The notes beneath the pieces are model-generated. The model made no database searches, was not told the origin of the DNA, and saw only the letters and a program-made list of their open reading frames with translations. From NCBI GenBank assembly GCA_964016885.1, contig OZ024743.1:54064001-54128000 (forward strand): DNA of 64,000 bases, in the 5' to 3' direction. This document shows positions 3,913 through 44,668 of this stretch, piece after piece. The stretch is from Eledone cirrhosa (taxonomy: Eukaryota). How positions within the stretch are numbered: position 1 is the first letter of the stretch; each line of letters opens with the position of its first letter. Made by a program: the position numbers and the translations under genes.

Positions 3913-4245
3913 TCGAAGATCACTAGACAGACCACTAGACAGACCAACAGATAGAGATAGGTAGAGCTACAGATATACGAATAGATAGGTATAGATAGCG
4001 TGAAGAGAAAGGTATAGAGTAAGAAATACCGAAATAGAATGAAAAGTTAATACACGGCTGATAAAAACTGTACATTTCATTCTAACGCCATTTTAAAAAA
4101 AAGAAAGTTCATTGAATTTCGAAGCTGGCTCTCGCTTGACTACACAACAACATTAACAAAGAAGAAACTGTTGGATCAACTGATGCACACAACTCTTTAT
4201 AATCCTGTTAAGATGTTCTCGTGACGTCTCTGTCCCTCTCTGTAG

Positions 4246-7200
4246 ATGGGTGTTGGAATTGATAGTGTTGGCGATGTTATTGATAGTAGTGGTGGTGGTG
4301 GTGGTGGTGGTGGTGGTGGTGTTGATAGTGTTGGCGGTGTTATGGATAGTGGTGGTGGTGGTGTTATTGATAGTGTTCGCGGTGTTATTGATAGTGGTGG
4401 TGGTGTTATTGATAGTGGTACTGATAGTGTTGGCGGTGTTATGGATAATGTAGATGGTGTTAGTGGTGGTAGTGTAGATGGTGTCGGTGTGGGTGGTGGT
4501 AGTGTAGTTGCTGGTGGTGATGGTAGTGTAGATGGTGGTAGTGTTGGTGGTGGTAGTGTAGATGGTGGTGGTGTTGGTGGTGGTAGTGTAGATGGTGGTG
4601 GTAGTGTAGATGGTGGTAGTGTTGGTGATGGTAGTGTAGATGGTGGTGGTGTTGGTGGTGGTAGTGTAGATGGTGGCGGTGTTGGTGGTGGTAGTGTAGA
4701 TGGTGGTAGTGTTGGTGGTTGTGTTGTGTTGTTGGTGGTTGTGACGATGTTGGTAATGGTTGTGTTGTGTTGTTGGTGGTTGTGACGATGTTGGTAATGG
4801 TTGTGTTGGTGGTGGTTGTGACGATGTTGGTAATGGTTGTGTTGGTGGTGGTTGTGACGATGTTGGTAATGGTTGCGTTGTGTTGTTGGTGGTTGTGATG
4901 ATCTTGGTAATGGTTGTGTTGTGTTGTTGGTGGTTGTGACGATGTTGCTAATGGTTGTGTTGATCGTGGTGGTGACGATGTTGTAATGGTTGTTTGTGGT
5001 GGTTGTGAAATTGTTTGTAATGGTTGTGTTGTGTTGAGCTAATGGTTGTGTTGGTGGTGGTTTTGACGATGTTGGTAATGGTGGTGTTGGTTGTGGTGGT
5101 GGTGGTGACGATGTTGTAATGGTTGTTTGTGGTGGTTGTGAAATTGTTTGTAATGGTTGTGTTGTGTTGAGGTAATGGTTGTGTTGGTGGTGGTTGTGAC
5201 GATGTTGGTAATGGTGGTGTTGGTTGTGGTGGTGGTGGTGACGATGTTGTAATGGTTGTGTTGTATTGGTCGTGGTGGTGACGATGTTGGTAATGGCTGT
5301 GTTGGTGGTGGTGGTGGTGACGATGTTGTAATGGTTGTGTTGTGTTGTTGGTTGTTGCGACTATGTGGGTAATGGTTGTGTTGGTGGTGGTGGTGACGAT
5401 GTTGGTAATGGTTGTGTTGTGTTGTTGGTTGTTGCGACTATGTGGGTAATGGTTGTGTTGGTGGTGGTGGTGACGATGTTGTAATGGTTGTGTTGTGTTG
5501 TTGGTTGTTGCGACTATGTGGGTAATGGTTGTGTTGGTGGTGGTGGTGACGATGTTGGTAATGGTTGTGTTGTGTTGCTGGTTGTTGTGACGATGTTGGT
5601 AATGGTTGTGTTGGTGGTGGTGGTGACAATGTTGGTAATGGTTGTGTTGTTGGCTGTTGTGACTATGTTGGTAATGGTTGTGTTGGTGGTGGTTGTGACG
5701 ATGTTAGTAATGGTTGTGTTGTGTTGCTGGTTGTTGTGACGATGTTGGTAATGGTTGTGTTGGTGGTGGATGTGACGATGTTAGTAATGGTTGTGTTGTG
5801 TTGGTGGTGGTTGTGACGATGTTGGTAATGGTTGTGTTGGTGGTGGTTGTGACGATGTTAGTAATGGTTGTGTTGTGTTGGTGGTGGTTGTGAAATTGTT
5901 TGTAATGGTTGTGTTGTGTTGAGGTAATGGTTGTGTTGGTGGTGGTTGTGACAATGTTGGTAATGGTTGTATTGTGTTGTTGGTGGTTGTGACGATGTTG
6001 GTAATAGTTGTGTTGGTGGTGGTGACGATGTTGGTAATGGTGGTGTTGGTGGTGGTGTGGTGGTGACGATGTTATAATGGTTGTGTGTGTTGGTCGTGGT
6101 GGTGACGATGTTGGTAATGGTTGTGTTGTTGGTTGTGGTTGTGACGATGTTGGTAATGGTGGTGGTGTTGGTTGTGGTGGTGGTGGTGACAATGTTGTAA
6201 TGGTTGTGTTGTGTTGTTGGTTGTTGTGATGATATTGGTAATGGTTGTGTTGGTGGTGGGTGGTGACTATGTTGGTAATGGTTATGTTGGTGGTGGTTGT
6301 GACGATTTTGGTAATGGTGGTGTTGGTGGTTGTGACGATGTTGGTAATGGTTGTGTTGTGTTGGTGGTGGTGTTGGTGGTGGTTGTGACGATGTTGGTAA
6401 TGGTGGTGTTGGTGGTGGTGGTGACGATGTTGCTAATGGTTGTGTTATGTTGCTGGTGGTGTTGGTGGTGGTTGTGACGATGTTGGTAATGGTGGTGTTG
6501 GTGGTTGTGACGATGTTGGTAATGGTGGTGTTGGTGGTTGTGACGATGTTGGTAATGGTGGTGTTGGTGGTTGTGACGATATTGGTAATGGTGGGTGGTG
6601 GTGGTGACGATGTTGGTAATGGTGGTGTTGGTGGTTGTGTCGATGTTGGTAATGGTGGTGTTAGTGGTTGTGACGATATTGGTAATGGTGGTGTTGGTGG
6701 TTGTGACGATGTTGTTAATGGTTGTGTTGTTGGTGGTGGTTGTGACGAGGTTGGTAATGGTTGTGTTGTTGGTGGTTGTGACGAGGTTGGTAATGGTTGT
6801 GTTGGTGATTGTGACGATGTTGGTAATGGTGGTGTTGGTGGTGGTGGTTGTGACGAGGTTGGTAATGGTTGTGTTGTTGGTGGTTGTGACGAGGTTGGTA
6901 ATGGTTGTGTTGGTGATTGTGACGATGTTGGTAATGGTGGTGTTGGTGGTGACGATGTTGGTAATGGTGGTGTTGGTGATTGTGACGATGTTGGTAATGG
7001 TGGTGTTGGTGGTTGTCACGATGTTGGTATTGGTAGTGTTGGTTGTGACGATGTTGGTAATGGTGGTGTTGGTGGTTGTCACGATGTTGGTAATGGTGGT
7101 GTTGGTGGTGGTGGTTGTGACGAGGTTGGTAATGGTTGTGTTGTTGGTGGTTGTGACGAGGTTGGTAATGGTTGTGTTGGTGATTGTGACGATGTTGGTA

Positions 7201-7745
7201 ATGGTGGTGTTGGTGGTGGTGGTTGTGACGAGGTTGGTAATGGTTGTGTTGTTGGTGGTTGTGACGAGGTTGGTAATGGTTGTGTTGGTGATTGTGACGA
7301 TGTTGGTAATGGTGGTGTTGGTGGTGACGATGTTGGTAATGGTGGTGTTGGTGATTGTGACGATGTTGGTAATGGTGGTGTTGGTGGTTGTCACGATGTT
7401 GGTATTGGTAGTGTTGGTTGTGACGATGTTGGTAATGGTGGTGTTGGTGGTTGTCACGATGTTGGTAATGGTTGTGTTGGTGGTGGTGGTTGTGACGAGG
7501 TTGGTAATGGTTGTGTTGTTGGTGGTTGTGACGAGGTTGGTAATGGTTGTGTTGTTGGCGGTTGTGATGATTTGGGTGATATTGACGATGATAAGGGCGA
7601 TGGGCATCGTGGTATTGAATGTGGTATTGATTGAAAAGTTGACGGTGACGGTGATGTTGTGTGTGATAGTCACGTGGGTGATAACGGTGGTGTTTTGACC
7701 AGTGTTGAGAGTGTTTGGTGGTGTTGAGAACTGTATTGATAGTAT
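4246..7745. repeat. GGT/GTT-rich minisatellite (about 30-36 bp unit GGTGGTTGTGACGATGTTGGTAATGGTTGTGTT) with a 375-bp higher-order duplication
   Basis: Tandem units are visible directly. The diagnostic variant ggtattggtagtgttgg occurs at 7026 and 7401. Confidence 0.95.
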
Positions 7746-7848
7746 TAGTGGTGGGGGTTCACAGTGCCGGCTGTTGACTTTGATCTTGAGGATGTCGTGC
7801 AGCGTATTGAACCCAGAATCACTTTATTACGAAACGAACTATGATATA

Positions 7849-12335: not shown

Positions 12336-13133
12336 AAGTATTTTTCCTGATTCCCAACCAATGATTTCTTTTATAGGCCATAAAACCCCCAAACATTCGG
12401 AATAGTACAGGAACAAAATACAGAACATTTTTTTTTTAAAAACCAAGGAAACATTGCTCTCATTGATATTTCTATTGCTGACATTATCTGACTGTTGTAA
12501 CTCCTGCTAGAAAGAAGCACGGGAAATAAAGTAGTTTGCTCAAGAAACAAAGCGCCATAATTCTATGATAATGCGTCCGGGGACCTAACCATTAGGTCAC
12601 GTGCTTTAGCTGATGAAGGCTTGGACAGAGAGAAGCTTTGTCCTGAAAACTTTTAATCGTGTCTCGCAATAGACAGAGGTAAACTAGTCACCTGCCGTTA
12701 CTAAAGGGAAAAGGCGGTTTGCTAATCATAATAGACACTGCTGATAGCTGGGTTTATAATATACGTGAGAGCAGCCGTCAGGCGCTCCTTTCACATTGCT
12801 ATCTCTGTAACTTGCTCTATGCAAAGCGTAACGAGGGTGACTCTAACTTTTGTCATACATGAAATACGTCATATTGAAAACCACGTGTAATATAGCATGT
12901 TGAAAGATTTCAGTCACCGACTAATTCAATTTAATCTGGTGTTTTTTATAACCCCCCCCCCCCCCCCCCATAAAACCGTCACGAGAGAAAACACCAATAA
13001 GATCAGATATTCGACATTTTTGGATTGGAACGGGTCTTGTCTTCAAACCAACTGGTAAAAGCAACGGGCATATTCTGGTCTTCTTTAACTTCATCGACGA
13101 ATCATATACTACTCAGCTAACAACATTGTGGTA

Positions 13134-13223
13134 TATATATTCTATAACTGCAACGATACAGAGAAGATAAGCATGGTCCATGCACAAGGATGACGCGCAA
13201 ATTCGTGGAGCGTTCCATATTTT
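13134..13223 (+). pseudogene. U6: U6 snRNA pseudogene lacking the 5' stem-loop
   Basis: aacgatACAGAGAagataAGCatggtccatgcacaaggatgacgcgcaaattcgtggagcgttccatatttt is colinear with U6 (ACAGAGA box, AGC triad, ISL, 3' end) and carries several substitutions. Confidence 0.9.
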
Positions 13224-13225
13224 CT

Positions 13226-21284: not shown

Positions 21285-21642
21285 ATCTACTGTTATACAT
21301 TCAACTACTCCCTCCTCAGCCCCTAAAAACCTACTAATAAGTGTATATAAAAAGGCGCCTCTAGTGTGCCTAGTGTAAATAGATTAAATAGAATCGAAGT
21401 CTGTGTCGCAGCATATGTACAAACATTATTGGCATATTACAATTGTTTCGATATCGATCAGCTCAGGTTAAAATCAAAATGACGGGGCCCGATTCTTTTT
21501 CGACAACTGGTCAGATATGCGAGTTTATATGTGCAAAGACATATTCAAACTGTTGACAGAGATCCCGGGATCTTTTTTATATACACTTATTAGTAGGTTT
21601 TTAGGGGCTGAGGAGGGAGTAGTTGAATGAATAACAGTAGAT
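21285..21642. mobile_element. Fold-back module with about 69-bp inverted arms (21285-21353 / 21574-21642) around a spacer carrying an HHR-variant motif
   Basis: The arms are near-perfect reverse complements. The spacer minus strand reads cctgagctgatc-gatatc-GAAAC-AATT-GTA at 21438-21467. Confidence 0.7.
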
Positions 21643-21703
21643 ACAGATATATATATATATACACACACACACACATATATATATATCTATTTCTATTAAT
21701 AAT

Positions 21704-22532
21704 AATATTCCTAAACTATTCTTTAGGGCCTTAGATAAATGCTTCCCTCCCTCACATATCGAGAGTAAAATCTTTAACAAACATACAATAAAAATTTCTT
21801 ATTCCACCTCTTCCAACATCTCTAACATTATCTCTAAACACAACAATAAAATATTAAATAATAAATCACATCCTTCCAACACTGAGCGTCATAATAATAG
21901 CAGTAGTACTCCCGACGTCATTGTTAACTCTAGGCTAGATTTTGTAAACTTAAATACGACGTCAAACGTAACTTCGTTTAATGTTCATAATACCAATCTA
22001 AATCAGGAAACTATTATTCCTATCGTAAATAACTTCTCCAGTCCAATTCCTTCTATAAATAACACTAGGTCACTTGTTAATAACTCTGTTAATTTCTCTA
22101 ATCGTAATTTTAATTGCCCTGTTAGAACTAAATGTCCTCTTAATAACCATTGTCTTGATAAAAACTTAGTCTATGAATGTAAGGTTATAACTGATACCAA
22201 TTCCTTTACCTATTTCGGTTCCACTTCTACTTCCTTCAAAGCTAGATTTTATAATCACAATTCGTCTTTTAAATACCAACTTAAAAGAACTAACACGGTA
22301 CTATCGGAGCTCATATGGTCCTTGAAAGAGGAAAAATATGAACATCTCTTGGAGGAAGGTTTGTTCTGCCTTTCTTTACTTGAATTCTTCCCTATCCAGA
22401 ACATGTAATCTCTGCCTAGCCGAGAAATTTACCATTATATCTAATTTCAATTCTATAATAAATAGATGCACGGATTTATTTTCTCTCTGCTTGCATAAAT
22501 TCCACAGAACATTCCATAAAGTATACAGCTAA
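21704..22532 (+). pseudogene. Penelope-like (Naiad-like) linker plus GIY-YIG endonuclease, one frameshift near 22335
   Basis: The stop-free frame from 21704 reads NIPKLFFRALDKCFPPSH..KIFNKHTIKISYS..NISNIISKHNNKIL...NCPVRTKCPLNNHCLDKNLVYECKV..TYFGSTSTSFKARFYNHNSSF..TVLSELIWSLK. ORF 22338-22532 then continues with ISWRKV..CNLCLAEKFTI..NRCTDLFSLCLHK. Confidence 0.85.
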
Positions 22533-23686
22533 TATCTCAATACCTTACTAGTTTAAAATCCTTTTTCTCAAAGGCTTATATATCTTTTACAAATATACCC
22601 ATCTTTCTACCTTATTTCAATATTATATATTATATAATACAATTTACTCATTCTATATCATTCCTCTTTATCATTTTCCTTTCTTCCTTTATTCTTTTTA
22701 ATTTATAACCTCTAATCTGTACCTTTTCTTCCCAACTACTTATCAATTCTTATTATTACTCACCACAACATTATCCATTCTTCCATCTTTCCTCATATCA
22801 TTGGCCATAAAAATTCTTTTTAATACATTATAGTATTACCATTAGAAGTCCTTCGTAAACATATAATTTTTTGACATTAGATATTTTCTTCCTTAAATTT
22901 TTCTTATCTCCTCCATCCTTTCATGCTCGTTTTAAACTTCTACTTAATTTGACTTTTACATATTACAATACATAAAAACAAACTTCAACCCTAACTAATT
23001 TCTTTTAATATATTATATTATTACCATTAGAAAATATTTCGTAAACATATATACTTTTTGATGTTAGATATTTTCTTCCTTAAACATTCTTTTCTTCTTT
23101 CCTTCCGCCCTCATTTTAAACAAACTATTAACGTACACATATTACATTACATAAAAACAAACTTAAACCCTAACTAATTCCTCTAAATTCATAACTCATT
23201 TATTCTTCTCCTTCTTTTCACATTATATCCTTAATAACATTAATATTTTTATTTTAATAATACATATTAATAAATTCTTTTCCTCGCACATATTATTAAA
23301 CCCTTCAATATACAAACCTTAATTTAATACTATTCTTAATTCCTTTTTCTTCATGCATAAACCTCATTAACTTTTAATTTCAAAATCTTTTAAATTATGT
23401 ATTATCTTCCAACGGCTTTTTAATTTCTCTCTGTGAGATAATATTTTTTTTTCTCAGTTGTAAAGGCTATCTCTCTCTCTCTATCACCCATCTCTCCTCC
23501 TCTCTCATCCTTCCTTCTTATACTCCTCCCCCACCAACCTTTACTCTCATTTCTTCCTCTTCCTTACCTTTTCCAACCCCCTTCACTTTTTCCCAATCTC
23601 ATACATCAATCTTAATTTATTTTTCATATGTTGATTTAAAACATCACTATTCACAAGTGTTTTTTAAGCTTCATATCATGTCTCCC

Positions 23687-23757
23687 TATTTTATCTGATG
23701 AGAACGCAGATATCATCCCATGACGATATTTGTTTTTGAAATGCGCATAATAAAATA
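23687..23757 (+). ncRNA. Minimal type I hammerhead ribozyme at the 3' end of the Penelope-like element
   Basis: tattttat-CTGATGA-gaacgcagatatc..gatatttgttttt-GAAA-T-GCGC-A-TA-ataaaata. Stem I is 8 bp, loop III is the palindrome GCGC, and cleavage is predicted after 23749. Confidence 0.8.
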
Positions 23758-23786
23758 TTTGTAACTCTTTTAACCATCTTTTGATC

Positions 23787-23899
<113 letters not shown>

Positions 23900-28460: not shown

Positions 28461-29492
28461 TTACCAGATTTTTGTTTTAGTCTCATTCATTCTCACCCCC
28501 ACACTCATCGACACAGTCTCAACCTCCCGCATCAAATCCTCTGCCTCCTTCACTGTATTTGTCACCAAAACTATGTCGTCGGCAAATTCAGCATCCGATA
28601 CCTTTTTCGCCCCAACTCTCCTGCTCTGAGCCGGTGCTACAGTAAAGCCAGAGTCCTGGTGTTTCTCCAGTGCAAGGCGCATACAATAGTCCACTACGAT
28701 GATAAAAAGGTAGGGAGCAAATGTATCTCCCTGGACCACTCCAGCCAGTATCTCAAAGAACTCTGTCATCCCATCAGGTGTAATGACTTGGGCTTTGGTG
28801 TTGGTGTAGAGCAGTGATATCAGGTCCACTATCTTCTTGGGGATTCCATAAGCCTGTAAGATCTTCATCAGGCAGCAACGGTCCACAGAATCAAAGGCAT
28901 TCCTAAAGTCAATGAAAACCATGACCGCAGGAAGGCACTTTGCTCTAGCTCCCTCTAATATCCTACTCAGCATCGGGAGGTGACTGGTGGTTGATCTACC
29001 CTCTCTGAAGCCGTTCTGGTTGTTCCTGAGCTTCTTCTCCATCTCAGGCTGGATCCTGTTAAGAATCATCCTGTTGAGGGTCTTTGCCACAAGTGACGTC
29101 AGTGAGATCCCCCGGTAGTTGTTGGTGTTAGAGAGATCTCCCTTCTTTGGCACTGGGACGATGTTACTGATCCTCCACTGATTCGGGGCAACTCCTTTCT
29201 CCAGTGCCCCGTTACAGAACCCCAGGATGATATCATCAAGATCACACCTCTTCATCACCTCTGATGCTACTCCATCTTCTCCACGAGCCTTGCCCTCCTT
29301 GATCCTCTTCTTGGCTCTCTGAAGCTCCTCTCTGGTGAAGGGCTCTGTCTCAACATCCAGTTCCTCAAACAGCCGCCTGATCTCCTCAGTGCTCTGGGCT
29401 GTGGAGGGTGGCTCTCCTAGTAGGGTCCTAAAATGGTCTAGCCATTTCCTCTTCCTATCTTCGGGCCCGTTCCCTGGATCTGACTCGAACAC
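28461..29492 (-). pseudogene. RTE ORF part 2: reverse transcriptase
   Basis: VPKKGD..NYRGISL, QNGFREGRST, FIDFRNAFDSV, GVVQGDTFAPYLF and EFADD motifs. Confidence 0.93.
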
Positions 29493-30817
29493 CTTCTCTT
29501 CCCCCCTGTGATCTCGTTGATGATCATCCAGCTCTCCTTACATCTAGATCTGTCAACCGCTCTCTCCACACTTCTGATCTTCTCTATCAGTGCCTCCTCT
29601 CTGACCTCAGTGTAAGCGGTACAGAACTCTTCCCTCATCACCTCCACAGTCTCCATCCTCTCCTCCGTAGGATCAGCATAGAATTGGTCCCTGGCAGCTT
29701 TCAGGTGTTCTCTGGCTGCACACACTTTTGGGTTTGCAGAGCTGACGTGCTTCCCTTTGTTATTTTTCCTCGGCACCAGGGTTTCACTCGCTTCCGCCAC
29801 TGCATTGGTGAAGTGCCCGTACCTCCTTGTCACACTCTCCTCAATCCATCCAATCTCTCTCTCCTCTGACTCTCCACACAGAGCACTAAACCTGTTTCTC
29901 ACTTCCACTGTGAACCTCTCCTGTAGCTTATCATCTTCCTTGAAAGCTCCCCAGTCATAGATTGTTCTCCGGGGCTGAGCCTTGCTCTTTCTTAAGCTCA
30001 CGCGGACCTCACTCATAACAAGCCGGTGGTCACTACCCAGTGTACTGAAATAGCTGTATGGTTCCGTGTTCAGAACACTATTCCGCCACTTTTTCCTCAC
30101 CAGAATGAAATCAAACTGGGACTTGGACAGGTGCATATCTGAGATATAGGTCCACATCTTCCCCAGATTCTTCCTAAATCTTAGGTTGATCGCCATCAAG
30201 TTCGCCTCCAGCAGGGTGTCTCTCAGTAGTCTTCCATTTCCGTTGGTGTTGTTATGGAAGTACCAGCAAGGATCTTCACTGCCCTCCTTACTCAGATGTG
30301 CATTGAAGTCCTCCAAAACAAGCAGGATATTGTGTGCCTGAGGGGTGTTGACAGCTCTACACACCTCCTCATGGAACTCTTCCGCATTCACATCACTGTC
30401 CCCCTCGGTTGGACTATAGGCTGAGATGACTGTCAGTCTTGGGTTTCCATTGAAGGTCACCATCAACACTCGCGGGGAGATAGGCATTATTTCCCTCACC
30501 AACAGATTGGTCTTTGCACTGAACACAAAACCCACTCCTCCTACTGCAGCATTTGTTGTGTTCTTCACTGCCGATGTAGTGATGAGCTGGCTCTTCCTCC
30601 CGATCATCACACTCCTCACGGGCTCATCGTGTAGAATCCTGTGTTCTTGGATCACAAGTATCTGTATACCACTCTCCTCGAACAGATGTCCCAACTCCTC
30701 TCTCTTCTCCAGCGTCCGAATAGTCCTCACATTCAAAGTGCCCATTTTGATGGCTCTTCTGCGGGACAAAACTGCATTGTTTATATTTGTCTCAGAGACA
30801 GCTGATCCATCATCCAC
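29438..30817 (-). pseudogene. RTE ORF part 1: apurinic-like endonuclease
   Basis: GTLNVRT, IQEHR, SAYSPT, EDFNAH, FDFILV and SDHRLV motifs. Confidence 0.92.
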
Positions 30818-31500
30818 TGGCCCTCTCTGTGGCTCTCAGCCAGCAGAGTCATAACGACCAGGCTGCTCCTTGACGGTGTAATTAGGGGCTCTAACCCTAG
30901 TGCTGTTAGATCGACTCTCCATATTTCTTTTCAATGGCTGACAATACCTTACCGGCGCCACTCGAATAGGGTAGTTATTTAACCCATAAATGGAGCCCTA
31001 ACAGGTACTACCACCCCGGGCCAGGGCAGACCTGGGAGTCATGACAACTAAGGGGTAACTCCACATTCCCCACATCTCCTGAACTCCCGAACTGGAGCCT
31101 TGCCACTGGATGTAGTTTAATGTCATACCCAGGACACATATGTATATACATATATATATATATATATGTGCGTGTGTATGCATGTATATATCTATAAATA
31201 TATGTATATATCTATAAATATATGTATATGCATGTATATATGTATATACATATGTATATGCAAGTATATATGCATATATATATATATGTATATGTGTGTG
31301 CATGTATATATATATATTTATATATGTATATGTATCTATATGTGTAAATATGTATGTATATGTGTATATATGTATATATATATGTTTGTATACGTATATG
31401 TATACATATGTGTATATATGTATATGTATATATGTATATGTATAAATATGTGTATATATGTCTATATGTGTGTATATGTATGTATATATGCGTGTATACA

Positions 31501-38845: not shown

Positions 38846-40439
38846 AAAAAAAATAATAAGGCGGCACTTCTCCCCTCTCAGTCAGTTATTAAAAAACAGA
38901 GAACGATCCTCAATGGTAAAACTATTCAAGTCAAGGTACCATACTAGATTAGTTCACCTGTTTCATGCTCAGCGAGAAAGGCTATGCCATATCCTCGTCG
39001 TGTTGTTGTGCCACTCAATAGAATTGGATACCGTTGTGACACATATTTAAAAACATGGCCGTAAAGTACAATATAGTATTATATAGTAAATTACGACTAT
39101 TGCAATGATTCTCACTCTTTCAATTAGTGTTTGAAAAATCCTTTATTGCAATATTTCTTATCTCAAATATTTGAACGCAGGCATATTTAAGTGGTTATTC
39201 GAAATCATAAAATGCGAGATTTTGTCCTACTCTGTGGCATCGTGTGGGAATGTTTTTATCATAACTTCAGCTTTGTAAGTAAAATTGAGTACACTGAAAC
39301 TATGTGGAAGCCCATCAGATGGATTATACTTGTAATTCAAAGGTGCAGCTTTATTACATTGTATCTTACACTGATTTTTGCCAGAGAATTATATTAAGGG
39401 CACGTGTTTCTGTGGAATACACATCTAATTATACGTTAACATAGCTAGTCGGACTTTCTGTTCATCAGAGCGGGACAGACGGAGGCAGTGACAGTAGGAA
39501 TTTGGTTTCTTTGTGTTCGGATCTGGTGTATATGTATATGTTTATTTACAGCATCACAAGTTACCTAATATAACTATAATAAGGTCTTCATTAGTAAACT
39601 GAATATTTGTTGTCGAAATTGACTGAAGGCATTTCATATCAAATATAATTTTCTATTTTATTTTATTTTATTTTATTTTATTTTTTGTGGTGATTACGTT
39701 AGTATGACAGACAGAGCCGGCGCTCCCATTCTGCCAACTACTCTCGTGTCTCGAATAATCTTCCCCTATTCGCTTATTAATTTTTCAGATATATTTCCTA
39801 CAAAAATTACCGATTTTCCAAATCCCGGGTAAAGACCTCAGAGATACGCATTACTCAATCTTAAAATACTATATTTTTTATCGAACTGAAAGGATAAAAA
39901 TGAAAACTCACCCCGGCGTGGTTTGAACTCAGAACACAGAAATCAATAACAGATAAAACAAAACATTTTGTCCTCTGCTTCAAAGACGTCAATCCCCCCC
40001 TCTCTCCCCCCCCTCTCTCCCCCCTCACTCTCTCACTCTCTCTCTCTCTCACGCAAACATATTTCATATGAGACACACTTTCTTTTGCACCATCGGTGTC
40101 TTTCTTTCTCTGTCTGCATGCCTCTCTATCTCTCCTCTTTTAAAACATGTTTTTCTTATATTCACGTCACTACAAGTCTTTCTCTCTCTATTCGCTTACA
40201 CTCTTCCTCACATTTCTCTCAGAGAAGCTCTCTCTCTCTCTCTCAAACTTACACATCTCGCACGTGAGCACAACTTCTTTGTCAGTCTCACCTTTCCTCA
40301 AACCATTTTACACATTATAGCATCATAAATACATACTCATTTATACATACATACATAATACATACATACATACATACATAATACATGCATAATACATACA
40401 TACATAATACATGCATGCATACATACATACATACATACA

Positions 40440-41865: not shown

Positions 41866-41909
<44 letters not shown>

Positions 41910-41911
<2 letters not shown>

Positions 41912-42434
41912 GTATAACTGAACAAAAAAGAAAAACGAACACAGACATATACATGTATGTGTTCAAATCGTAATGGACCAGAAATGCTTTTGATATATTC
42001 GGCTCCGTTAATTCGTATCGTAGAGTTAATTCAAATGTCGTGTAGACCCGGCTGCTATTTTTAGTGACGTGAGTCTGCGCGACACGCTAAGTTCGGAAAC
42101 CGTGTGCGTTACATATACACATTCTATCCAGTTCTTTATTTTATTTAGAAGTGATCAGGATTCTAATTCTTCACCCGCTGATGAGCTAGGAATTTGATAT
42201 ACCGCTTCACAAATAATATTGCGAAACGGTTCTATCAAAAACCGTCCGGGTGATGGGTAGTTACCACAATACTGATTTGTATTTATTTTTCTTGATTTAT
42301 TCTTAAATTGAGTCAAGCAAACCCTATTGGCTATAGTTAGGATTTTTTTCATCTTAGAATTTCTGGTCCATTACGATTTGAACACATACATGTATATGTC
42401 TGTGTTCGTTTTTCTTTTTTGTTCAGTTATACTA
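41910..42434 (+). mobile_element. Fold-back module with perfect 76-bp inverted arms (41910-41985 / 42359-42434) enclosing a canonical HHR, set between (TA)n tracts
   Basis: The arms are exact reverse complements by eye. The right side extends to about 42515. Confidence 0.8.
42171..42253 (+). ncRNA. Canonical type I hammerhead ribozyme
   Basis: tcacccg-CTGATGA-gc..atttg..caaat..gc-GAAA-cggtt ctatcaaa aaccg-TC-cgggtga. Stem I is 7 bp, stem III is 6 bp, and GUC cleavage is predicted after 42246. Confidence 0.88.
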
Positions 42435-42518
42435 TACGGCTCGGAAAAAACCTTTTTCCTAGACCTAATTTTACTGTAATGAGACTAATTTGAGTTTCTA
42501 ATTCAGTACATGCTTTTG

Positions 42519-42566
<48 letters not shown>

Positions 42567-42574
<8 letters not shown>

Positions 42575-42993
42575 TTAGAAAATATAAGCTTTCACCGTAT
42601 TTTAGACTAAAGAAATTTCTAGCCTGATAGTGGGGTTTATAACCCTTGGAGAAATGGAAAAAGATGAGTGTTGCCGTACATGGGAGTCGAACCCACATCT
42701 TTGGTTATCCAGACCACTGTGCTACCATTACACCAATACACATCCCATCTCCATCCTGCTTGTTTATCATTCTCTTGCTAAGTTCATAGCTTCTAATTCG
42801 AATGGAAGGAGATGGGATGTGTATTGGTGTAATGGTAGCACAGTGGTCTGGATAACCAAAGATGTGGGTTCTACTCCCATGTACGGCAACACTCATCTTT
42901 TTCCATCTCTCCCAGGGTTATAAACCTCATTATCAGGCTAGAAATTTCTTTAGTCTAAAATACGGTGAAAGCTTATATTTTCTAATTTCTAAT
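42567..42993. repeat. Palindrome with 186-bp arms (42567-42752 / 42808-42993), each arm containing a tRNA-like unit
   Basis: The arms are reverse complements with a few substitutions and a 55-nt spacer. The structure abuts (TA)n. Confidence 0.95.
42817..42902 (+). pseudogene. tRNA-derived (Gln-like D arm) Pol III unit followed by a T5 terminator, with a mirror copy at about 42658-42743(-)
   Basis: A box tggtgtaatggtagc, B box ggttc(t/g)actcc (intact GGTTCGACTCC in the left arm) and TTTTT at 42898-42902. Confidence 0.6.
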
Positions 42994-43257
42994 TTCAAAC
43001 TCGCGCACCATTTCAAAAACATACTTACATGTTTACATTTATAATTTGCTTGTATATATATATATATGTATATATATATATGTTTTCCTACGTGCAAAAA
43101 ATGCATATAGGGACACATATATTATCCAACCGTATGCCAATGTGGTTCTATGGCAGGTTAATAAATTAACGAGCCAGAACATATATAATCAAGGTTTAGC
43201 AAATAGAGAAAAAGTTTTAAAATAAATTTTAAAAAGTTTACTGTACTTACTATATTT

Positions 43258-43340
43258 ACCCTTACCGCGCGGTTTCAATTCTCAAAATAAATGGATAATC
43301 CACGCGGAACACATTGAGAAGGAGAATTTCGTCAGAGGGT
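43258..43340 (-). ncRNA. Type I hammerhead ribozyme (mirror copy in arm B)
   Basis: Minus strand reads accct-CTGACGA-aa..ttctcaa..ttgagaatt-GAAAC-CGCGCG-GTA-agggt. Confidence 0.82.
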
Positions 43341-43710
43341 TCTTCTCACTCGCAGAATATAAAATTCCCGAGTTCAAATCACGAACTGGCGCCATACAGA
43401 ACTGTTCCCGGATGAGAGTGTATGATGCGTACGGTTGGATAATTCATGTGTCCCTATATGCATTTTTTGCACGTAGGAAAACATATTTTATTATTATTAA
43501 TCTCCCCTAAGTTCGAGATAAAATTTTGGTCGTTTTTACTGCTGCTATTTCTAGTGGCAGGACATTGACCTTTCTACACTTGCCTTCTATCTTTACACAC
43601 AGCACTAGACAAGATTGTTTCTTCATCATAGGCTCTCATCCTGGAACAGTTCTGTATGGCGCCAGTTCGTGATTTGAACTCGGGAATTTTATATTCTCCG
43701 AGTGAGAAGA

Positions 43711-43794
43711 ACCCTCTGACGAAAGTCTCCTTCTCAATGGTGTTCCGCATGGATTATCCATTTATTTTGAGAATTGAAACCGCGCGGTAAGGGT
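43711..43794 (+). ncRNA. Type I hammerhead ribozyme with a palindromic stem III (arm B')
   Basis: accct-CTGACGA-aagtctccttctcaa..ttgagaatt-GAAAC-CGCGCG-GTA-agggt. Stem I is accct/agggt, and GUA cleavage is predicted after 43789. Confidence 0.85.
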
Positions 43795-43865
43795 AAATAT
43801 AGTAAGTACAGTAAACTTTTTAAAATTTATTTTAAAACCTTTTCTCTATTTGCTAAACCTTGATT

Positions 43866-44668
<803 letters not shown>

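Follow-up and report, generated by a model that had tools for sequence, protein, structure and literature searches.

The closest described systems are the animal non-LTR retrozymes and the Penelope-like elements. Animal non-LTR retrozymes, as described in PMC7229834 and 10.64898/2026.07.22.740005, are non-coding units with one type I hammerhead and <50% GC; they form head-to-tail repeats, are predicted to fold as well-paired circles and coexist with autonomous Penelope-like elements. The units reported there for invertebrates measure 170-400 nt. The Penelope-like layout combines partial tandems with a 5'-truncated copy in inverse orientation and, optionally, a tail (PMC8557442, PMC3846280). 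In the accounts of Neptune, Poseidon and Naiad (PMC8557442, PMC3846280, PMC11167929), it is accompanied by two start sites, (TA)n or AT-rich targets, microhomology junctions and an uncleaved RNA template, and the tail of endonuclease-bearing elements is 30-40 nt. For Poseidon in vitro, PMC11167929 reports that both target strands are cut and extended and that synthesis begins at two internal sites, which delimit the tail. Unprocessed RNA served as the template, and the hammerhead, which was dispensable for insertion, cleaved only with the help of protein. Self-priming on an antisense template is proposed in PMC3846280 as another origin of head-to-head structures.

The locus at 41910-42518 of the window (the whole stretch of 64,000 nucleotides of Eledone cirrhosa contig OZ024743.1 that was analysed) was compared with both systems. 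All the retrozyme features named above are shared by its family, which has a non-coding unit of a few hundred bases, one type I hammerhead and no LTR layout. Unlike the described retrozymes, the unit is 526 nt long, no two full units occur in 148 loci, stem III is long and the stem II region spans 38 nt. The insertion features of Neptune, Poseidon and Naiad are shared as well, the uncleaved RNA template possibly so; the family differs from endonuclease-bearing Penelope-like elements in having no ORF and a tail of 82 nt, and its real stem III sets it apart from the minimal dimer-type hammerhead described for Penelope repeats (PMC4209133). With one hammerhead, this copy lacks the two by which 10.64898/2026.07.22.740005 recognizes an active copy. 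We concluded that the locus is an aged single-hammerhead copy of an abundant non-coding repeat and is best grouped with the animal non-LTR retrozymes. In our preferred reading, which we consider probable, this aged copy of the 526-nt family was copied into (TA)n, likely by a Penelope-type reverse transcriptase, in a Penelope-like layout, and its own ribozyme is predicted to be misfolded. The features of the locus are as follows.

41869-41907, no strand: left flank, (TA)n target microsatellite, read from the sequence
41908-41988, minus strand: left arm, an inverted, 5'-truncated second copy starting at site B; equals the unit from 42436 back to 42356
41984-41992, plus strand: junction of the head-to-head copies, with what remains of a preceding tandem unit; sequence identical to 42510-42518
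41993-42518, plus strand: complete 526-nt non-coding unit (retrozyme-like monomer)
41993-42007, plus strand: start site A, internal copy; CGGCTCCG comes after TA-rich sequence
42151-42170, plus strand: 5' leader, forming a 17-20-bp helix with the loop II strand in the family; the helix is weakened in this copy
42171-42253, plus strand: whole type I hammerhead motif, from pattern inspection and covariation
42171-42177 with 42247-42253, plus strand: stem I, 7 bp
42178-42184, plus strand: hammerhead core CTGATGA
42185-42186 with 42221-42222, plus strand: base of stem II, two G-C pairs
42187-42210, plus strand: loop II strand, the partner of the leader, bearing the private base G42204; here predicted to pair with GAA and stem III instead
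42223-42226, plus strand: hammerhead GAAA
42226-42231 with 42240-42245, plus strand: stem III, 6 bp
After C42246, plus strand: predicted cut (C17 of GTC)
42256-42265, plus strand: small covarying hairpin GGT-AGTT-ACC directly 3' of stem I (U-A 35, C-G 7)
42431-42444, plus strand: start site B (3' end 42436), where CGGCTCGG comes after TA-rich sequence; 95 of 237 outer ends in the family
42437-42518, plus strand: 82-nt 'tail' between sites B and A; site A lies at 42518-42524 and accounts for 96 of 237 outer ends
42519-42567, no strand: right flank, (TA)n target microsatellite, read from the sequence

A first-pass annotation of this DNA had described a hammerhead inside a perfect 76-bp inverted-repeat module. 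The inverted arms are exact over 76/76 positions (41910-41985 and 42359-42434) when the comparison is stopped at the first mismatch; with family-defined ends (41908-41988 and 42356-42436), 79 of 81 positions are identical and the word 'perfect' no longer applies. The module is not enclosed by its arms, as the right arm is internal to a unit which extends 82 nt further, to 42518. What had been read as enclosing arms is a second truncated cDNA and its internal counterpart, not a pair of terminal repeats. The right part of the locus runs from site A through one unit and about 9 nt of a preceding unit, and the left part runs from site B for about 80 nt. The remnant of a tandem unit at the junction is supported by the direct repeat 41984-41998/42510-42524, and tandem partial units are also carried by other loci of the family; the stretch 41984-41988, where the remnant overlaps the left arm, represents microhomology. 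No ORF of at least 120 aa overlaps the 526-nt unit, nor was an autonomous Penelope-like ORF (RT + GIY-YIG) found in it. That the locus is an insertion was correctly recognized: it is a mobile insertion with a type I hammerhead inside. Among contigs from three sequencing runs of one sample, none spans the insertion.

When the genome (3.0 Gb in 1,796 contigs, rich in (TA)n) was searched with 41990-42520, 2,148 first-look candidates were obtained; the best 40 were scored, and the best other copies were 86-94% identical. A conserved 24-mer gave 655 exact genome matches (control, 0) and is retained in 17 of 44 independently chosen pieces, which gives about 1,700 pieces. The size of the family is estimated from sequence matches at roughly 1,500 insertions. 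The closed unit is the same in subfamilies with as little as about 68% identity. A sister family (L234-L263, about 68% identical, 1,258 further candidates) has a CTGAAGA core, and its stem I, leader helix and 3' hairpin all carry compensatory changes.

The insertion layout was analyzed in 148 non-redundant loci from the 161 given. Outer ends (n=237) fell at site A in 96 cases, at site B in 95 and elsewhere in 46. The two sites are fixed 3' ends 82 nt apart, both TA-rich and followed by CGGCTC, and (TA)n adjoins 157 of the 191 family ends at A or B. Two-armed loci with both 3' ends pointing outward make up 89/148, and junction overlaps are mostly 0-5 nt (27 well-aligned cases). The family as a whole thus shows the Penelope-like layout of partial tandems, head-to-head inverted copies and an optional tail. 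Arms longer than one unit were counted in 43 of 191 cases and arms crossing the cut site twice in 8, numbers which, like the arm lengths, are inflated by the choice of the first 30 loci as best full-length matches. The longest arms in the 148 loci measure 931-940 nt and none reaches two full units, so that rolling-circle copying is not demonstrated by this layout.

These observations are consistent with the following course of events. A Penelope-type enzyme would nick both strands of the (TA)n target, and cDNA would be primed at either of the two internal TA-rich sites, A or B, each with CGGCTC next to it. At this locus, one cDNA would have started from A, covered one unit and crossed the unit junction by about 9 nt, while the other, started from B, would have been about 80 nt long; short microhomology would then have joined the two 5'-truncated cDNAs and produced the inverted arms. 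Self-priming on an antisense template, as proposed in PMC3846280, is a possible other origin of the head-to-head arms. The role of the hammerhead in source elements was likely the cleavage of multimeric transcripts to monomers, and the helix between leader and loop II, which would be the first to form in transcription, may have damped it. The copy at the locus could not release a monomer by self-excision because it carries one hammerhead only.

The RNA template was assessed from the 5' ends of the copies. A motif 3' of the cut site was used to list 100 copies, which were counted by eye: 77 pass the cut, 5 end within a few bases of it and 18 end before it. A pile-up of 5' ends at the cut site was also sought by alignment, and only 3 of 95 arm 5' ends fell in 42240-42253. 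A further 24 of the 95 lie just 3' of the cut site, at 42253-42292; these could reflect stalling at the ribozyme and are partly perhaps alignment edge effects. Since the cDNAs continue past the cut site, the cleaved linear monomer is not the usual template; a re-ligated circle or an uncleaved multimer would take this role. The circular monomer is predicted to be well paired (z of -4.6 for the consensus and -4.3 for this copy, 40 shuffles each).

The hammerhead itself was then compared with its earlier description. The core bases (CTGATGA, GAAA and GTC), the 7-bp stem I and the 6-bp stem III named in the first-pass annotation were all confirmed, and the motif has CUGANGA, GAAA, UH and stems I-III in type I order. 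It is not a chance occurrence, because a core pattern common to several families has 1,900 genome matches compared to 1 for the reversed control, and a family-specific pattern has 15 compared to 0. The term 'canonical' was not appropriate: the 38-nt stem II region consists of 2 firm pairs and a 34-nt insert, and an Rfam search of 41900-42530 with E up to 10 returned no hammerhead, the only match being RT-14 at E = 8. There was also no hammerhead among the best 150 of 245 Rfam matches in the window. The long inserts in this hammerhead are the likely reason for the miss. In the case of 'monomeric', with no dimer needed, the description holds for the design of the family, since stem III has 4-6 bp, covaries and is not palindromic.

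Covariation was evaluated in an alignment of 44 copies, drawn from 52 references, whose rows were chosen by the core pattern; the core and the stem II G-C pairs are invariant there because of this selection. Stem I contains positions with A-U 31 / G-C 11 and U-A 32 / A-U 9, and stem III positions with A-U 32 / G-C 7, G-C 33 / A-U 7 and C-G 24 / U-A 15. Paired cells reached 86.7%, compared to 28-46% for slid partners, each cell standing for a sequence rather than an event. Two-sided change was found in 9 pairs, a number not above that in shuffles (342/500). RNAalifold gave no useful consensus for this alignment (-1.2 kcal/mol, 8 pairs, 0 from stems I-III), probably because decayed copies and competing helices cancel. 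In unselected family pieces reaching the ribozyme, the core was intact in 36 of 57. As stems I and III covary across subfamilies, the ribozyme fold was selected in the family.

The sequences of the leader (42151-42170) and of the loop II strand (42187-42210) are complementary. A leader-loop II duplex of 17-20 bp, with -11.7 to -20.9 kcal/mol, is present in 13/13 subfamily consensuses, and 0-4 of 300 shuffles were as good. The consensuses represent groups of 3-28 copies, with 19 unclustered copies and 9 of the 30 sister-family loci left out. Cognate leader and loop II pairs had a mean of -17.4 compared to -14.3 for non-cognate pairs (0/100,000 permutations, in a test inflated by relatedness), and the cognate partner ranked first in only 3 of 13 rows. 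Two-sided changes in the helix are A-U 22 / U-A 16, G-C 15 / U-A 12 (16 unpaired) and A-U 32 / G-C 5. The end of this helix is separated from the 3' strand of stem II by only 5-10 bases. By geometric reasoning, stem II and the full-length helix would therefore be mutually exclusive.

Hammerheads with a stem I-stem II pseudoknot are the closest described parallel for this helix. In the hammerheads of PMC3088659, the strand 5' of stem I forms Watson-Crick pairs with the strand 3' of the first stem II strand, and the pairing adjoins a short stem II, as in this family. The pseudoknots tested there are activating and 5-6 bp long, whereas the helix of the family has 17-20 bp and leaves only 5-10 loop bases. 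By this analogy, its inner part could be a stem I-stem II pseudoknot of the activating type. The PK hammerhead (PDB 8YDC, PMC11300833) likewise joins a hammerhead core to a pseudoknot, which in our case is a candidate. In the structure described there, the pseudoknot replaces helix II in a pistol-like manner, whereas the family has ordinary type I order and keeps a helix II of 2-5 bp; this family is not the PK hammerhead.

From the predicted pairings, the leader-loop II helix is a candidate off-latch or pseudoknot. A tentative interpretation, about which we are rather doubtful, is that of a selected latch: the 17-20-bp helix would form first during transcription and hold the ribozyme off until its outer half is opened, perhaps by the Penelope-type protein; the inner 6-11 bp would then be left as an activating pseudoknot. 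If true, this would provide a structural reason why RNAs of Penelope systems are copied uncleaved yet retain a ribozyme; an off-latch would also make it testable with short RNAs why these elements retain it. With its many diverged subfamilies, the family provides naturally covarying examples of an unusual hammerhead whose leader forms a long helix with loop II. A literature search, mainly outside the subscription journals, returned no account of the family or of the leader helix. We regard the helix as new here and the family itself as a known kind of element. In several subfamilies, loop III was also seen by eye to be complementary to a UUGGU/UUGAU word of the loop II strand (42193-42199 with 42233-42239 in the window), with an apparent G-C to A-U switch in the subfamily of this copy; this pairing is a possible second off-fold.

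The first-pass annotation had considered this copy the best candidate in the window for an active ribozyme and had suggested a young or homogenized insertion with an active monomeric hammerhead. The intact core, as opposed to 36/57 in unselected pieces, and a predicted probability of stem I near 1 favor activity. So does the leader helix, which is the weakest in this copy (-10.0 kcal/mol, 18/300 shuffles as good); the latch would therefore be largely lost here. The remainder of the predicted fold points in the other direction. In the minimum free energy (MFE) structure, 42193-42212 pairs with 42219-42239 and buries G12, A13, A14 and the 5' strand of stem III, which is the dominant alternative fold sequestering the core that the annotation itself had named as a refutation. 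The hammerhead fold lies 11.1 kcal/mol higher in three contexts, in a nearest-neighbour model that leaves aside pseudoknots, Mg2+ and tertiary contacts, and no accessible catalytic fold was found for this copy in silico. In the same three contexts, the predicted probabilities of stem III and stem II are 0.0. Of the 34 other copies scored on the minimal construct, a single one has a gap above 11.1 kcal/mol. The subfamily consensus has a gap of 4.1 kcal/mol and the other consensuses have 0-7.6 without and 1.4-9.7 with the leader, so that gaps of 4-10 kcal/mol in several subfamily consensuses qualify the reading of the misfold. Part of the gap (about 3 kcal/mol) comes from G42204, a base present in 1 of 158 other pieces, and with the family base at this position the gap is cut to 8.0. 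The misfold is computed to be complete at 42240, before stem III can close. The ribozyme of this copy is thus predicted to misfold.

The age of the copy bears on the same question. Compared with the consensus of its subfamily, it has 22 differences in 514 positions (4.3%) and a 5-nt duplication, and its nearest sampled sibling is 5.3% away. A 35-mer with its private variants has no other exact match in the genome and one at 2 mismatches. These values give no support to a young insertion. The identity of the arms over 76/76 positions is the main point in favor of youth or homogenization: zero differences in 2 x 76 bp have P = 0.001-0.006 if all 22 differences arose after insertion. With the family-defined ends (79/81), the 2 differences have a Poisson probability, calculated by hand, of about 0.03 (4.3% per arm) to 0.2 (5.1% between arms, the family value). 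Homogenization was not observed for the family as a whole, as inverted pairs within a locus differ by 5.9%, compared to 5.6% to the nearest other locus. Pairs with zero differences are in similar excess among inverted (5/92, 1.5 expected) and direct arms (2/47, 0.55 expected), and family-wide homogenization of inverted arms was ruled out on these grounds. At this locus, the near-identity is a low tail for an old copy and possibly results from chance or local conversion. We consider it unlikely that the insertion is young or homogenized and carries an active hammerhead. Because of the 4.3% divergence, the lack of a close sibling among those found, the single hammerhead and the gap of 11.1 compared to 4.1 kcal/mol, this aged copy is a poor candidate for an active ribozyme.

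Two other readings concern the identity of the unit. One is that it is the solo end repeat (pLTR) of an undetected autonomous Penelope-like element and not a self-contained retrozyme. Its layout is the same as that of autonomous elements, whose hammerheads sit in pLTRs according to PMC4209133, the preprint 10.64898/2026.07.22.740005 derives retrozymes from pLTRs, and a rare coding parent could have been missed since only the best 40 candidates of the genome searches were scored. In the listed loci, however, the unit start is preceded by flanking sequence, by an inverted piece or by the 3' end of the unit itself, and CGGCTC at site A leads into the unit rather than into an ORF. The closed unit is retained in subfamilies down to the about 68% identity given above, and two Neptune-like families found in this genome share no sequence with the unit and have a palindromic or different stem III. 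We consider a solo pLTR improbable, more so than an active young copy. The other reading is that of a MITE (DNA transposon-like) with 76-bp terminal inverted repeats and a hammerhead by accident. It draws on the inverted repeats near both ends and the TA-rich target, but the length of the inverted piece ranges from <50 to >450 bp across loci and 59 of 148 lack the piece altogether, the right arm is internal rather than terminal, and many loci contain partial tandems. As the arms are variable and do not form fixed terminal inverted repeats, a MITE or DNA transposon was rejected, and we give this reading hardly any weight.

Under the preferred reading, an aged retrozyme-like copy with Penelope-like insertion marks, the donor enzyme has to come from elsewhere. 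No autonomous element homologous to the unit was found in the comparison with the two Neptune-like families, so the donor is deduced from the layout; it is likely a Penelope-type reverse transcriptase. An abundant autonomous element is present in this genome (45,889 first-look candidates), with an 808-aa frame between two hammerhead-bearing repeats; we take it to be Neptune-like from its cysteine-linker motif. Its protein homologues carry PF26215, the only named animal homologue being from Argonauta hians (38%). It has two preferred ends about 30 and about 120 nt past stem III (24 and 10 of 38 ends), about 90 nt apart. A 5'-truncated member of this family lies in the window at 21641-23790, with a frameshifted endonuclease fragment, a long 3' region and a dimer-type hammerhead at 23695. 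At another locus (L266:300-3500, also L114), an arm of the 526-nt family is fused head-to-head to a 5'-truncated Neptune-like ORF. The contact sits inside an inverted copy of the Neptune-like element's own 3' region and can be read in two ways, as a template switch between the two RNAs or as a later insertion with deletion. A template switch in one event would name the donor enzyme.

The locus is an ordinary one, being one aged copy among many, and the importance of the family is modest. The family adds one more retrozyme-like unit with Penelope-like insertion marks, a link which is proposed in PMC7229834 and 10.64898/2026.07.22.740005. A younger hammerhead family (L080-L104, L147 and L148, e.g. 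G000:C1:115573500-115579500) is spaced at 481-485 bp and includes tandem trimers; many of its stem II regions are identical and its stem III is palindromic. It is a better place than this locus to look for active copies.

Several other elements were observed in the window. Directly downstream, at 42568-42992, there is a near-palindromic two-armed element (90% over 431 bp) with very high summed contig depth, whose arms contain tRNA-Ser(GGA)-like sequences at 42672-42744 (minus strand) and 42816-42888 (plus strand). It looks like a tRNA-derived repeat inserted head-to-head, like the hammerhead unit. It is followed at 43060-43870 by a two-armed insertion of another hammerhead family, with a CTGACGA core, a stem II region of 52-53 nt and a palindromic stem III; its hammerheads are at 43335 (minus strand) and 43716 (plus strand), and its arms are 95-97% alike. 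A broken LINE, which by its motifs is presumably of RTE type, occupies 28461-30835 (minus strand) with endonuclease-like and RVT_1 frames (Pfam E 1e-31). A U6 snRNA copy with several substitutions (13120-13224, plus strand, 80.7 bits) and a U3-like match above gathering (38857-39062, minus strand, 40.7 bits) are probably pseudogenes. A long low-complexity tandem array at 4150-7820 has a GC skew of about 0.79 and long stop-free frames.
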